Position numbers and translations under genes: made by a program. A DNA stretch of 19,237 nt, taken from assembly GCA_963752155.1 (NCBI GenBank), contig CAVVXH010000013.1, positions 1 through 19,237 of the forward strand, read 5' to 3'. The DNA comes from an uncultured Parachlamydiaceae bacterium (lineage in GTDB: Bacteria > Chlamydiota > Chlamydiia > Chlamydiales > Parachlamydiaceae). Positions 1,697 to 12,756 of this stretch are shown piece after piece. The notes under the pieces are model-generated. The model was not told the DNA's origin, ran no database searches, and worked only from the letters and a program-made list of their open reading frames with translations. Every line of letters starts with the position of its first letter. Positions within the stretch are counted from its first letter, which is position 1.

Positions 1697-3343
1697 ATGA
1701 ACGTCGATTCAAATAAATTTTTAGTTTGCAATGAATTTGCGGTTGTTTTTTGGGTTAATCCTAAAACAACGGAGGAAAGAGCATGTTTAGAACCAAAGCT
1801 AGACTGGCTAGAAGCCTTTAAGGTTATAAAAAATGGATTTTGTAACAAAGAGTTAGATCAAGATGTAAATTGGATTGAAAAATATAAAAAAATTATTTCT
1901 TTCAGAGATAGATTCCTTGCAGTTTGTTCAAAAATACCCTCAGAAGAATTAGCTCAAGCTGAAAAATATATTACAATTTTTTCAGAAATTTCTGAAGAAT
2001 TATTAGGAGATATTAAAAAAATTTTTCAAAGTGCACATCCTCTTTCTCAAGAAAATATTTCAAAAGCTATTTATTTACACAGTGAACAAAAATTGTTAAA
2101 TCTATATAAAGGGATTGCAGTACAATTAAAGGTCAGGCCTGAATGCAAATTTGCAAGTTCGATGCGTGACATAGATCATGAAGGCAAAAACCCTGTTCGT
2201 AAACATTATAAAAGTGAAAATTCGGATATAATGGCTTTACCAATCAATGTTTTTAAACATTATTCTCAAAAAAATCAATTTGAGAATTCTAATTGGCATC
2301 CTAATCAGGATATTACTGTTTTAATGAAGGAATTAAAGGCTCACGGACCTTTATTAATAACAGGAAGTTTTGGAAGTGATTTTTACTCAATGCCTTCACA
2401 CAAACTTAAGCATATGGTAGGAGCACAGGCAATGTGGGGATGGGATCAAGAGAACAAAGTGTTTAGTCCTAGCCTGAGTAATGCAAAATCTCTTGGAGAA
2501 GAATCGCATAGAGTGATCCTTATCGGGGCTCGAATTTCTAAAGGCAGCACAGGTCATGTTTATATTGTTGATCCGTCTTCGAATGAAGAAAAAATTTACG
2601 TTATCAGTTTAGAAGGCTTAAGAAAGCGTATTCGTGACATTTGGAATGAAATTTTTCTTTCTGATATGGATACTTCTTATTTATTAAATACACCTATTGG
2701 AAAAAGCGGTGCAAAGTTTGGTTTATTTTGTAAAAGTTGCATCTCTCCACAAAATCAGCTACAAGTTTCCAATAATTCTTCAGAAAATTCTACCTGGCAA
2801 CAAAAATATGAAGCATTGATCGAAGCTCAAGGTAAATGTTCACTACATCCATTGAGTGATCCTCCGGAACATCTTATAGAAGTTAAAAATAAGTTTATGG
2901 AAATTTTCGATAAGGCTCCTGAAGAAAAAAGGCGACAACTTGTGAAAGAACCTTTATTTCCTCTTTCAACAAAGTTCAAGAAATTATCTCGAGATTCTGC
3001 AAAACCGCTTAACTATATCATGTTTTGTGGTGACTTTGAAGCTTTAAAGAAAATAGCCCCATATCTAAATCCAGAGGATTATCTCGCACTAGGTCCTTAT
3101 GATTCTACATTCATGCATTGTTTGATTTCTGGATTTCAAAAAAGAGTAATTAAACTCAATTTCGATCCTGGTTCCTTAGAATGTGCCAAATTCTTATTAG
3201 AAAAAGCTCCTGAATTGGCAGTTAAGAAAAATAATTTAGGCACCACTCCGCTTTCTTTTGCCAAAGAAGTATTAAAAACATGCATTAAAGGTCCTTGTAA
3301 TTTAAATGATGTGATTATATTGTTGGAAACAGCAAATTCCTGA
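1697..3343 (+). CDS. Hypothetical 548-aa protein; candidate papain-like protease domain plus C-terminal ankyrin-like repeats (putative effector)
   Basis: Long ORF; LKAHGPLLI...HRVILIG...VYIVDP pattern; ankyrin-like C-terminus (CAKFLLEKAPELAVKKNNLGTTPLSFA). The CDS is solid, the domain calls tentative. Confidence 0.7.
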   Translation: MNVDSNKFLVCNEFAVVFWVNPKTTEERACLEPKLDWLEAFKVIKNGFCNKELDQDVNWIEKYKKIISFRDRFLAVCSKIPSEELAQAEKYITIFSEISEELLGDIKKIFQSAHPLSQENISKAIYLHSEQKLLNLYKGIAVQLKVRPECKFASSMRDIDHEGKNPVRKHYKSENSDIMALPINVFKHYSQKNQFENSNWHPNQDITVLMKELKAHGPLLITGSFGSDFYSMPSHKLKHMVGAQAMWGWDQENKVFSPSLSNAKSLGEESHRVILIGARISKGSTGHVYIVDPSSNEEKIYVISLEGLRKRIRDIWNEIFLSDMDTSYLLNTPIGKSGAKFGLFCKSCISPQNQLQVSNNSSENSTWQQKYEALIEAQGKCSLHPLSDPPEHLIEVKNKFMEIFDKAPEEKRRQLVKEPLFPLSTKFKKLSRDSAKPLNYIMFCGDFEALKKIAPYLNPEDYLALGPYDSTFMHCLISGFQKRVIKLNFDPGSLECAKFLLEKAPELAVKKNNLGTTPLSFAKEVLKTCIKGPCNLNDVIILLETANS

Positions 3344-3344
3344 A

Positions 3345-3453
3345 GTCATTTTTATTATTTCGCTTTAAATGGAAAAAAGCTTAGAGGAGAGTTCATTATT
3401 ATATTGGTGCTGGCAGCGGTTGGAAGATCATCTCAAGATCTTCCATCGTAATC
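3345..3453 (+). pseudogene. Degenerate duplicate of the 3' part of the ligD phosphoesterase gene
   Basis: 3364-3402 matches 1349-1387 at 37/39 nt; CATCGTAATC, which spans the ligD stop, recurs near 3444-3453. Confidence 0.7.
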
Positions 3454-3493
3454 TGTGCATTCATTGTTTTTCCGGAATCGAGCAATGAAGAAA

Positions 3494-4043
3494 CAGCCAA
3501 GCTGGTTGTTTTTGATTGGCAAAATAGATGATCATATTAAATTATAATGTTCAATGATGTCACCACCTTCCCCAATTATCGTTCCTATCGTTCTTATCGT
3601 TGCATCGTTGATTACGTACATATCCAACTCACAGGGCATTTTGAGCTTGTTTTACAGCAATTTCATTGATGTTCACAGCTTGATACGTTCTGTTGCTACT
3701 ATAGATCAACGGTATAAACGATAAGAACGATAAGAACGATAAGAACGATAAGAACGATAAGAACGATAGGAACGATAAGAACGATAAGAACGATAAGAAC
3801 GATAAGAACGATAGGAACGATAGGAAAGATAAGAACGATAGGAAAGATAAGAACGATAGGAAAGATAAGAACGATAGGAACGATAGGAAAGATAAGAACG
3901 ATAGGAAAGATAAGAACGATAGGAACGATAAGAACGATAGAAACGATAGGAACGATAAGAACGATAATTGGGGAAGGTGGTGACATCATTGAACATTATA
4001 ATTTAACATGATCATCTATTTTGCCAATCAACCAGCTTGGCTG
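3494..4043. repeat. ~550-bp element bounded by ~100-bp inverted arms
   Basis: 3494-3601 is the reverse complement of ~3942-4043, apart from a 6-bp indel, one substitution and the order of repeat-unit variants. Confidence 0.92.
3717..3968 (+). repeat. Tandem array of 28 x 9-bp units (AACGATAAG / AACGATAGG / AAAGATAAG)
   Basis: Counted directly; no spacers between units. Confidence 0.97.
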
Positions 4044-4093
4044 GGGGTCGATTTCCATGGTGGTTGACATCAGTAAGGCATCACTTTTACCTG

Positions 4094-4115
4094 CGAAAAT
4101 TAGCAGGAATTGCTG
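4094..4115. repeat. Solo terminal arm of the CAGCARTTCCCGCTAA miniature-element family
   Basis: CGAAAATTAGCAGGAATTGCTG vs CGAAAATTAGCGGGAATTACTG at 8650-8671 (20/22). Confidence 0.7.
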
Positions 4116-4132
4116 TTCATGTTTGCAAAACG

Positions 4133-4161
4133 TTGACTTATTTTTTATAGCAATATAAAAT
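4133..4161 (+). promoter_or_regulatory. Sigma70/sigma66-type promoter for DUF2905-ribF
   Basis: TTGACT-17 bp-TAAAAT, 24 nt upstream of ATG 4186. Confidence 0.65.
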
Positions 4162-4185
4162 GCAATTTTAAAATCTAGGATTCCC

Positions 4186-4404
4186 ATGGGTAAAATAATA
4201 TTTTTGATTGGTCTTGGGATCGCTTTGTTCGGGCTATTTGTTATGTTAGGATCTCGAATCGGATTACCTTTCGGGAAGCTTCCTGGTGACTTTGCCTGGA
4301 AAACAGGCAGTATGTCGATTTATTTGCCTATCGTTAGCTCCATTATTTTCAGTATAGTTTTAACAATTTTAATTAATTTAGCACTATGGCTTTTTCGAAA
4401 ATAG
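4186..4404 (+). CDS. DUF2905 family small membrane protein
   Basis: Two hydrophobic helices flanking FGKLPGDF...IYLPIVSSIIFS. Confidence 0.85.
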   Translation: MGKIIFLIGLGIALFGLFVMLGSRIGLPFGKLPGDFAWKTGSMSIYLPIVSSIIFSIVLTILINLALWLFRK

Positions 4405-5304: not shown

Positions 5305-5619
5305 ATGTTTGACCTTTCTTCAGATAAATTTTCAGTTCATGAAAGAAAGCTAAAAGAGCTTAAAATGAGGTCGGAAGAAGACGATGCTTGGTTAGAAAAA
5401 ATTCTCCATGAGCACAAGATTTCGAAGGAAAATTTATTTCTTTTTCTTGCAGATTCTGCCAATTTTGATGAAGAAACATGGAAAACGATGCAAGATTTGC
5501 GTTTAGAGCTTAAGAAGGCTGAAGAAGGAAAATTTCAAGTTAAAGATCCGAGCAAAACAGATAAGAAATACAAAGAGTTGAATAACGCTAATGCTGAAAA
5601 TTGGATTTTAGTGCGTTAG
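5305..5619 (+). CDS. Hypothetical charged coiled-coil protein (~104 aa)
   Basis: ORF track gives 5293; ATG 5305 preferred because GAGGG lies upstream; ends NWILVR. Confidence 0.75.
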   Translation: MFDLSSDKFSVHERKLKELKMRSEEDDAWLEKILHEHKISKENLFLFLADSANFDEETWKTMQDLRLELKKAEEGKFQVKDPSKTDKKYKELNNANAENWILVR

Positions 5620-5692
5620 GGACTGGGCAAAAATAACTTGCACGATTCGGCTGCGCCAAAGCCCTTCCCCAATCGCACAAGTTATTATTGCC
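5619..5692. mobile_element. Degenerate copy of the GGGACTGTGCAA palindromic miniature element
   Basis: TTA-GGGACTGGGCAAAAATAACTTGCACGATTCGGCTGCGCCAAAGCCC...CAAGTTATTATTGC matches the reverse complement of 10222-10296. Confidence 0.8.
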
Positions 5693-7788: not shown

Positions 7789-8244
7789 CTAATTTGTATC
7801 TACAGGCGTAGAATAGTAATAATAAGGATATATATAAGTTGGGGAAGTATCATAGTAGTTGTCGTAATAGTAATTTGGGTAATAGCTATCATAATCGTAG
7901 TAGTCAGGTGTATAATAATTAAATCCATTGCCATACCAACCGCCGCCCCAATTATTCCAATGATTGCCATGATGATGACCATGTCTATGATGATGTCCAT
8001 GTCCTCCATGGTGGTGGTGTCCATGTCCTCCGTGATGATGACCATGATGTCCTCCGTGACCACCATGATGTCCCCCGTGGCCTCCATGATGCCCCCCTCC
8101 TCCATGACCTCGAGCTATGAGTGCATTTTGATCTATCGAATCGCCATTAAGCTGTATTGATGCTATAGGGAAAAGAGAAATAGTTCCTAAAAGTAAAAGT
8201 AAAAGTTTAAGTGCTAAAGATGAAAATTGATGGGTAGAATACAT
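7789..8244 (-). CDS. Secreted Gly/His-rich and Tyr-rich low-complexity protein
   Basis: Hydrophobic N-terminal signal, GH/GGHH repeats, Y/D/N-rich tail; GGGG upstream of the ATG. Confidence 0.75.
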   Translation of the reverse strand: MYSTHQFSSLALKLLLLLLGTISLFPIASIQLNGDSIDQNALIARGHGGGGHHGGHGGHHGGHGGHHGHHHGGHGHHHHGGHGHHHRHGHHHGNHWNNWGGGWYGNGFNYYTPDYYDYDSYYPNYYYDNYYDTSPTYIYPYYYYSTPVDTN

Positions 8245-8610: not shown

Positions 8611-8671
8611 CAGCAATTCCCGCTAAACTTTCGTGCCCGTGCCCGTGCCCGAAAATTAGCGGGAATTACTG
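8611..8671. mobile_element. 61-bp MITE-like element with 10-bp target-site duplication
   Basis: TIR CAGCAATTCCCGCTAA/TTAGCGGGAATTACTG, (GTGCCC)3 loop, TTAGGGATTT at both 8601-8610 and 8672-8681. Confidence 0.85.
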
Positions 8672-10194: not shown

Positions 10195-10221
10195 AAAGGT
10201 CCTTGTAGGTAAATGTGATAA

Positions 10222-10296
10222 GGGACTGTGCAACAATAACTTGTATGATTGGGCTTTGGCGCAGCCCAATCGTGCAAGTTATTGTTGCACAGTCCC
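10222..10296. mobile_element. 75-bp palindromic MITE-like element with TAA target-site duplication
   Basis: GGGACTGTGCAACAATAACTTG...CAAGTTATTGTTGCACAGTCCC flanked by TAA (10219-10221) and TAA (10297-10299). Confidence 0.85.
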
Positions 10297-10307
10297 TAAA
10301 TAACGTG

Positions 10308-10458: not shown

Positions 10459-12650
10459 TTGGAAAAATTGAAAAATAGATCTGGTCGAGCATGGAATCGC
10501 CTTATTCATGGAGATGAATACAATCCACATTCTGTTCTTGGATTGCACGCTTATGATTTTGAAGCCCAAGAACCCCAAGAAGCAAAAAAGATCTATTTAT
10601 TTCGACCAGGCGCTACAGAAATTCATTTGGAAGTTTTTGGAGAGACTGTTCAGGCTAGAGGTCTCCATGAAAGCGGCTTATTTGAATATGAGGTTCCCAC
10701 AGAAACAACCGCAGCAGATTATCGCATCTATCACGCTAACGGATTACTTGCTCATGATCCTTATGCGTTTATGCCAACAATTGGAGAATACGAGTGTTAC
10801 CTTTACGGTAAAGGTGTTCATTATGAGCTCTATCGTGTTTTAGGAGCACATTTTATCACGCAGTGGGGCATCAAGGGTGTCAGGTTTGCCGTATGGGCTC
10901 CAGGAGCAATTCGAGTTTCCCTGATTGGAGATTTCAATTATTGGGACAGCCGGACTAATCCTATGCGTAGCTTAGGTAGTTCTGGCATTTGGGAAATTTT
11001 TATCCCAGGATTAAATGAGGGGATAAAATATAAATTTGAAATTAAAACACAATCAAATCAGCTTCAAATTAAAGCTGATCCCTTTGCTTTTTCCTCCGAA
11101 TTGCGGCCAGCCACGGCTTCAATTGTTACCAACCTAGATAAGTTTGAGTGGGAGGATCAGGATTGGCTGCGTCAGCGCAGAGAATAAGCGAACAAGCCCA
11201 AACCCCTTACTATTTATGAAGTTCATCTTGGCTCTTGGAAAAAAGAAAACGGACATTTCATTAATTATCGGAAGCTAGCTCTCGAATTAGCCGACTATTG
11301 TTTGAAAATGGGATTTACGCATGTAGAACTAATGCCTATTCAAGAGCATCCCTTGGATGAATCTTGGGGCTATCAAGTTTCAGGATTTCTATGCTCCTAC
11401 AAGCCGCCATGGAAGCCCTGAAGATTTTCAGTTCTTTGTCAATCATCTTCATCAACAGGGGATTGGAGTCATCTTAGATTGGGTTCCAGGGCATTTTCCT
11501 ACAGATGCTTTTTCTTTGGGTCGATTTGATGGCACAGCTCTCTATGAGCATGACGATCAGCGTCAAGGCTTACATCCACATTGGAATACCTATATTTTCA
11601 ATTTCGGCCGCAATGAAGTCGTCGAATTTTTTGATTGCCAATGCATTGTATTGGTTAGAGAAAATGCATGTTGATGGCCTGCGCGTAGATGCTGTGGCAT
11701 CGATGCTTTATTTAGATTACGGGCGCGACAGTGGAGAATGGATACCCAATCGTTATGGAGGCCACGAAAATTTAGAAGCGATTGAATTTTTTAAGCACCT
11801 GAATTCGATTGTGCATCAGAGAATTCCCGGGACCATTGATGATTGCTGAAGAGTCCACTTCTTTTGCAGGGGTTTCGCATCCTGTAGAACAAGGAGGACT
11901 GGGATTTGATTTGAAATGGAATATGGGATGGATGAATGATACCTTGCGTTATTTTTCGACCGATATGCTATTTTCGCAATTATCATCACAATGATTTAAC
12001 ATTTGGGTTGATTGTATGCCTTTTCAGAGCGTTTTGTCCTGGTGTTGTCCCATGATGAAGTCGTGCATGGCAAAAAAAGCTTATTGGGCAAAATGCCAGG
12101 AGATATCTGGCAACAATTTGCCAATATGCGTCTTCTATATAGTTATATGATTTGTCAGCCTGGAAAAAAATTGATTTTTATGGGAGGGGAGATTGGGCAA
12201 TGGAATGAATGGAATTGCAAAGGGGAAATTGAATGGTTTTTACTCAGATTTCCAATCCATCATGGCCTCCAAACAATGATTAAAGACCTCAATCACTTTT
12301 ACTTAGCCCATTCAGCCCTTTGGGAACATGATTTCAATCCATCAGGGTTCGAATGGGTCGATTTTAGTGATAACGCCAATAGTGTAATCAGTTACCTAAG
12401 AAAAGGAAGTGGAGACATTCTTCTATGCGTGCATAATTTTACTCCAGTTTACTACCCCTCCTACACAATTCGTTTGCAAAATGTATCATCTATTCAAGAA
12501 GTATTTAATACAGATGCAGAATGTTATGGCGGTTCTGGTCAGCAAAATGCTAATCCACCACAGTTAGCAAGAGGGGAAAATGGAATCATTTTTGGAGTAG
12601 ATATCGTGTTGGCTCCCTTAGCAACCATGATTTTTGCAGTCAAGTTTTAA
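10459..12650 (+). pseudogene. glgB: 1,4-alpha-glucan branching enzyme, interrupted (1 stop, 5 frameshifts; possibly sequencing error)
   Basis: Motifs across frames: [64 protein letters not shown]; ~728 aa once repaired. Confidence 0.93.
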
Positions 12651-12666: not shown

Positions 12667-12756
12667 CAGCAGTTCCCGCTAAAGATAAAGAATAGCTGAG
12701 CGAGGGCTGTCAGCAGTCCGCAGCCAGCTAGTCTTTATCTTTAGCGGGAACTGCTG
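12667..12756. mobile_element. 90-bp MITE-like element (same TIR family as 8611) with imperfect 9-bp TSD, overlapping the can 3' end
   Basis: CAGCAGTTCCCGCTAAAGATAAAGA...TCTTTATCTTTAGCGGGAACTGCTG; flanks GTGCAAAGC / GCGCAAAGC. Confidence 0.8.

Follow-up and report, generated by a model that had tools for sequence, protein, structure and literature searches.

The window analyzed here, a stretch of 19,237 nucleotides, is an entire contig (C13) of a 3.13-Mb genome assembly that comprises 22 contigs and is 80% complete. It contains a fold-back element whose inverted arms, 3512–3601 and 3942–4031, are each 90 nt long and 97% complementary. When a 6-nt gap is bridged, arm pairing reaches 3494 and 4043, giving full arms of 3494–3601 and 3942–4043 that differ by this gap and three substitutions. 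The predicted fold of the element has an energy of −201.7 kcal/mol and a z-score of −16.9, which was matched by none of 100 shuffled sequences. On the strength of the complementarity and the fold score, the fold-back with two inverted arms described in a first-pass annotation of this DNA is real. So is the reported asymmetry of 3 versus 28 units, which is borne out by the unit counts in both arrays: the left array (3575–3601, minus strand) consists of three units (AACGATAAG, AACGATAGG, and AACGATAAT), a length close to that typical of relatives, while the right array (3717–3968, plus strand) consists of 28 units of 9 bp, the basic unit being AACGATAAG, and includes the doublet AACGATAGG-AAAGATAAG five times. 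A 115-bp linker (3602–3716) separates the arrays, and an outer arm lies beyond each of them. Module comparison with sister copies resolves the right outer arm (3969–4043, plus strand), which is passenger DNA, into module C0, an 85-bp deletion, and module C1b with an additional 6-nt deletion. The left outer arm (3494–3574, minus strand) is an inverted copy of this right-arm module (C0, the 85-bp deletion, and C1b) and occupies the site of module C2 and the left transposon end in sister copies. The element had been taken to end at 4043, but the sister alignment places the right part of a MITE beyond that point: family sequence continues through module C1c and a shortened subterminal sequence (4044–4099, plus strand) to the transposon end, a surviving right terminal inverted repeat (4100–4115, plus strand) that has one mismatch to the family 16-mer and is without a left partner or a matching target duplication. 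Two repeat-derived ORFs (3699–3989 and 3706–3996) were taken as by-products of the 9-bp period; frames that cross the linker have stops in the sisters.

Rather than being single-copy, the locus belongs to a family of 81 arrays of at least three units, which group into 43 loci in this genome. Array length has a median of 11 units and a maximum of 59, and 14 of the 81 arrays have at least 28 units. No locus lies inside a long ORF (0 of 43), several adjoin other repeat families, and across the family modules are shuffled, flanks swapped, and cargo flipped exactly at the arrays. When 38 adjacent inverted pairs were ranked by their unit-count ratio, a ranking that leaves out partner arrays of fewer than three units, the window locus was the most lopsided (9.3-fold), with the next at 3.3 and a median of 1.8. 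Its asymmetry is extreme yet not unique, because a locus with 30 versus 2 units (C1:92374–92790) exists among the pairs outside the ranking. At some array loci the cargo is flipped relative to the leaders, and two further loci (C6:187185–187962 and C10:446748–447398) are symmetric across their arrays, with the same leader or inner module on both arms. Further tandem-word families are found genome-wide, namely AAAGGCAC (44 arrays), AAGGACNNC types, ACAGAG types, and ACGGGC.

Each array marks an end of a cassette built around a GxxExxY (PDDEXK_3) gene. Between inward-facing array pairs lies a GxxExxY gene or what remains of one; PF13366 gave 22 matches at E ≤ 0.1, of which 14 exceed the cut-off. 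One intact copy of the gene is present in the genome (C10:276731–277069; TIGR04256, 138.6 bits), flanked by arrays of 31 and 10 units; its ATG lies within the last array unit, and the G-x-x-E-x-x-Y and D...ExK motifs are both present. The genome also holds many deleted derivatives of the cassette. In G001, G002, and G025, the same GxxExxY clade is bracketed by the same repeat word. Metagenomic relatives were examined more widely: 80 were fetched, 57 had enough flank, and a bracket was defined as two or more AACGAT words upstream together with two or more in inverted orientation downstream. An inward-facing bracket was found in 34 of the 57, with a frequency that followed identity (28 of 33 at ≥75%, 6 of 19 at 65–74%, and none of the five below); the wrong orientation was seen zero times upstream and twice downstream. 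The cassette arms in these relatives have 2–6 AACGAT words per side, starting at a TCAACG-like outer end. AACGAT arrays thus bracket a single GxxExxY clade and face the gene, which is the starting point in the history proposed here. An association with four-helix-bundle genes, raised in the first-pass annotation, came close, but GxxExxY is the cognate gene. Other words flank two related loci: CACAAAG words lie around a second GxxExxY gene (C6:157328), and AAGGAC words around a four-helix-bundle pseudogene (C1:43222). The function of PDDEXK_3 is listed as unknown in the accessible part of one source (PMC3424549), and no published description of the GxxExxY bracket was found in the literature searched, where most subscription papers fall outside coverage.

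The window element shares its repeat word and its outer-end motif with the gene-bracketing arrays. Its own arrays face outward, a layout also found at ten other loci, and hold no gene or gene remnant between them. The “leaders” and CGTTGAT ends originally described are present, but their orientation is reversed: the leaders lie on what is normally the gene side, and CGTTGAT marks the outer ends of the cassette. Because CGTTGAT is an outer end, the window element is inside out, with a right and a left cassette end joined back to back. The linker had been regarded as a unique spacer of about 100 bp. At 115 bp, it is one of 11 aligned copies, the ten others differing from it at 6–11 of 117 columns. 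Positions 3616–3676 and 3675–3714 each match, in the same orientation, a different stretch of the left flank that borders a cassette in G001, a genome of the same genus. These matches, together with the 11-copy alignment and the polarity of the cassette, point to a linker made of the right outer end, a shortened ancestral left flank, and the left outer end, such that a right cassette end would have been fused to the old left flank and the product later shortened. Such a linker is what one would expect from a circle as well as from a head-to-tail duplication, and an imprecise duplication is favored because the linker includes flank DNA. An imprecise head-to-tail duplication of this kind would have fused right end to left flank and left the arrays facing outward. 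Cassette ends can occur joined back to back, in a junction that can be tested by PCR as a circle.

Four sister copies are complete (987, 911, 916, and 918 bp): each has a 16-bp terminal inverted repeat at its two ends and a perfect 9-bp target duplication. Among 48 paired ends genome-wide, the duplication is perfect in 14, has one or two mismatches in 11, and has more in 23 (at most two mismatches in 25 of 48). The same ends bound ~1.6-kb elements in other bacteria, which carry a 440–485-codon ORF and have 9-bp duplications. Having terminal inverted repeats, a target duplication, no transposase, and ends in common with an insertion sequence, the sister family is a MITE, in agreement with the initial suggestion of a nonautonomous element. 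Relatives of the parent-element protein occur in 28 of 73 family genomes, with fragments in both same-genus genomes, and at two chlamydial loci (L218 and L220) both parent-element ends are intact and accompanied by the duplication. Neither the parent transposase nor the insertion sequence was found in the present assembly, at its 80% completeness. In G223, the same transposon end occurs 12 times, ~100 bp from contig ends, which suggests an unassembled multicopy parent element. In NCBIfam, the parent-element protein has IS4/IS701 matches, below cut-off only. The parent is a candidate member of the ISNCY subgroup ISMae2 (CAG ends, 9-bp duplication, DDE), which it resembles in its CAG ends, 9-bp duplication, and ~1.6-kb size but from which it differs in that its NCBIfam matches are confined to IS4/IS701. 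The parent transposase would then be of the DDE type. With the junction lying between transposon ends that have 9-bp target duplications in the four sister copies, such a transposase may have spread it in trans.

The window copy can be aligned with its sisters from the linker through the right end, and its left end is absent. As the first-pass annotation stated, no transposase ORF lies within the element and no clear target duplication was found; the 9 bases to the left of 3494 are unlike those at 4116–4124, so that there is no hidden duplication at the left arm. Upstream of DUF2905–ribF in the same-genus G002 ortholog, the element is absent, but the upstream gene there is a different one, and no empty site for the window copy was seen. 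Only 4 of the 43 array loci are fully MITE-bounded, and the MITE therefore does not account for the spread of the whole array family. Some gene-less cassette copies have nonetheless spread inside this unrelated MITE, and so copy number alone is no proof that the ends owe their movement to GxxExxY. Elsewhere in the window, the same 16-bp MITE ends bound two short MITEs (8611–8671 and 12667–12756), with target duplications of 9–10 bp, one of them with a mismatch; the first contains GGGCAC units.

The long stem is private to the window copy, the outer-arm length common to the sister copies being about 31–38 bp. Two features, the junction of the 85-bp deletion and a GGGG variant, have exactly two copies apiece in the genome, and in both cases one copy lies in either arm of the window locus. 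Because both arms carry two variants that are absent elsewhere, copying between the arms is likely, and the simplest course for it would be a template switch that transferred the right arm to the left side. A switch at a short pre-existing inverted repeat would have replaced the left part of the element, with loss of the left transposon end. The copying appears not to be brand new, since the arms have come to differ at three positions and by the 6-nt gap, of which the left arm retains the ancestral state. This divergence also bears on the highly improbable alternative that the left arm is an inversion chimera of assembly or amplification. Such a chimera would explain why the long symmetric arm is peculiar to this copy, and of the five sequencing runs listed, which account for small shares and include none of RNA, four were compared and none has reads over the arms or the linker; a fold-back chimera, however, should have nearly identical arms, which these are not, and the left arm retains the ancestral gap state. 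In addition, the outward-facing layout recurs at the ten other loci, and an independent contig is identical at 3297–3447, though it ends short of the arm. The symmetry could also have come from a chromosomal rearrangement, in which arrays recombined between two loci that both carried the deleted arm. The shuffling of family modules at arrays throughout the genome is consistent with this proposal, but it requires a second locus with both variants as well as a reciprocal product, neither of which is in the assembly, and the crossover would fall in a 27-bp array; we regard it as improbable. A local template switch is favored, and the window element is probably a damaged MITE of ~0.9 kb, likely immobile, with back-to-back GxxExxY cassette ends as its passenger and a fold-back that likely arose by arm copying. 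No source for the outer-arm DNA turned up among the 72 other family genomes, longer proteins, or plasmids, and the outer-arm peptide had only a self-like match among 1.84 billion representatives. The peptide was rejected as a transposase C-terminus: the only Pfam match was below cut-off, there were none in NCBIfam, and the 72 genomes, the longer proteins, and the plasmids gave no match.

The order of units within the long array provides information on its growth. In all five of its occurrences there, AAAGATAAG is preceded by AACGATAGG (an 18-bp doublet, p = 0.0026), the short arm has no AAAGATAAG unit, and unit autocorrelation at lag 2 is elevated genome-wide (z = 6.6). Because the doublet is ordered, is missing from the short arm, and is accompanied by lag-2 repetition, local slippage, not the copying of the short arm or of a fixed RNA template, is the likely source of the long array. 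The right array would have grown by slippage of neighboring units while the left stayed near its ancestral length. The idea that the short arm drove expansion is consequently at odds with the long array, but a part of it survives, in that arm-to-arm copying seems to happen in the family, which speaks against slippage alone: rare unit variants are common to both arms in five cases against 1.0 expected (p = 0.0025, 38 pairs, with the relatedness of loci not controlled), and the window arms have their private variants. Such copying appears to be only occasional, because arrays of one locus resemble each other in overall unit composition no more than arrays of different loci do (p = 0.89, 28 pairs), and by this measure no concerted evolution of entire arrays at single loci was seen. 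It most likely takes place at the DNA level. The involvement of a reverse transcriptase, also raised initially, found no counterpart in the 80%-complete assembly, which has no PF00078 match; repeats made by such an enzyme (retron, DRT, or telomerase-like) were rejected on this ground and because the variants spread in local blocks.

Hardly any long arrays occur outside this genome, which contains 784 overlapping five-unit windows as compared with 6, 3, and 0 in the other 72, although fragmented or short-read assemblies can collapse arrays. Loss of mismatch repair was rejected as the cause of expansion, as mutL and mutS are present. Loss of SbcD was likewise set aside: a search of 41 genomes failed to find it in 35, among them the present one, and its absence therefore does not single out this genome. 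One alternative, compatible with the preferred explanation as to what the element is and different as to the driver, is that the GxxExxY protein nicks or cuts its own AACGAT arrays, leading to array growth, flank swapping, and excision, with the junction recording a circle later captured by the MITE. The co-occurrence of repeat word and gene clade, the intact gene with both of its motifs, the flank swaps and cargo flips exactly at arrays, and the excess of five-unit runs in a genome that has mutL and mutS are all in keeping with this idea. Nevertheless, the junction holds flanking DNA and an internal deletion and not a precise end-to-end joint, gene-bearing relatives retain short arms, the swaps can be explained by ordinary recombination between homologous arrays, and the short-read assemblies used for comparison can collapse arrays. 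The nuclease is accordingly an unlikely driver. A bolder and more speculative extension would have GxxExxY cassettes constitute an undescribed class of selfish element, with a nuclease acting on its own tandem-word arms, whose activity ran away in this genome, lengthening arrays to as many as 59 units, exchanging flanks, and leaving a circle-derived junction between right and left ends that an unrelated DDE MITE later spread. The genome also supplies a candidate substrate–enzyme pair in the intact GxxExxY gene and its AACGAT array.

The preferred explanation leaves the window element most likely as inert selfish-DNA debris, not a new RNA, and there is no indication of a host function. The first-pass annotation had considered a structured noncoding RNA or a protein-binding array. 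The hairpin would be very stable if transcribed, 10 weak promoter-like matches are present in 3330–4200 against 3.1 expected, and the array loci avoid long ORFs. The last of these is expected of any tolerated insertion, however, and the window element has no Rfam match at the gathering score, its outer arms occur in none of the 72 other family genomes, only some 31–38 bp of outer arm are common to its sisters, and it is absent upstream of the G002 ortholog. Retention of the element for the host as a functional RNA or array is thus highly improbable.

Several known systems invite comparison, to the extent that they are covered in the accessible parts of the papers cited. Bacterial MITEs, including those that carry passengers, are defined there with lengths of 70–300 bp or <600 bp (PMC3733652 and PMC2779907). 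The carrier family is like them in its short terminal inverted repeats, target duplication, many copies, ends of a full insertion sequence, and lack of a transposase. It is unlike them in that the carrier is longer (911–987 bp), the passenger is the junction of another repeat family, and the window copy is without a left end. REP/REPIN/BIME elements and TIRtrons, as far as described in the same source (PMC3733652), share with the arrays a single gene flanked by paired inverted repeats, pairs of either orientation that lack the gene, and mosaic clusters. Their gene, however, is a Y1/HUH transposase, whereas GxxExxY belongs to the PD-(D/E)XK family, and their arms are short palindromes, whereas those found here are tandem 9-bp arrays of variable length. 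A RAYT was rejected as the cognate enzyme: the genome has two Y1 genes, the flanks of which carry other repeats. Ssn nucleases and their NTS repeats (Chenal 2025, PMC11893778) likewise combine a small nuclease gene with a cognate high-copy repeat, but in the part of that study available Ssn is a GIY-YIG enzyme with demonstrated activity, in contrast to the PD-(D/E)XK protein GxxExxY, which is known here from its sequence. Finally, in quasipalindrome template switching, as outlined in the available portions of two reports (PMC5941160 and PMC7202029), an imperfect inverted repeat is perfected or lengthened by copying one arm from the other. The putative copying of one window arm from the other is similar, but the tract would extend ~80 bp beyond a tandem array and is deduced from shared variants only.

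Other features of the window are recorded here. A segment just past a 548-aa orphan ORF (3352–3402) is an 88% copy of 1337–1387, a piece of the LigD 3′-phosphoesterase gene. A second dispersed palindrome family, with arms of 49 nt that are 94% complementary, is present at 5616–5664 and 10221–10299. The 151-aa ORF at 7789–8244 (minus strand) is His/Gly-rich and Tyr-rich and has no Pfam match. At 10459–12650, a glgB-like gene, judged by translation, lies in several pieces in different frames, reflecting either a pseudogene or assembly indels. At the contig end, 18520–19237 gives a weak match to bacterial SSU rRNA (95.5 bits, model positions 1–445) that overlaps a 131-aa ORF and is possibly a chimera or a false match.
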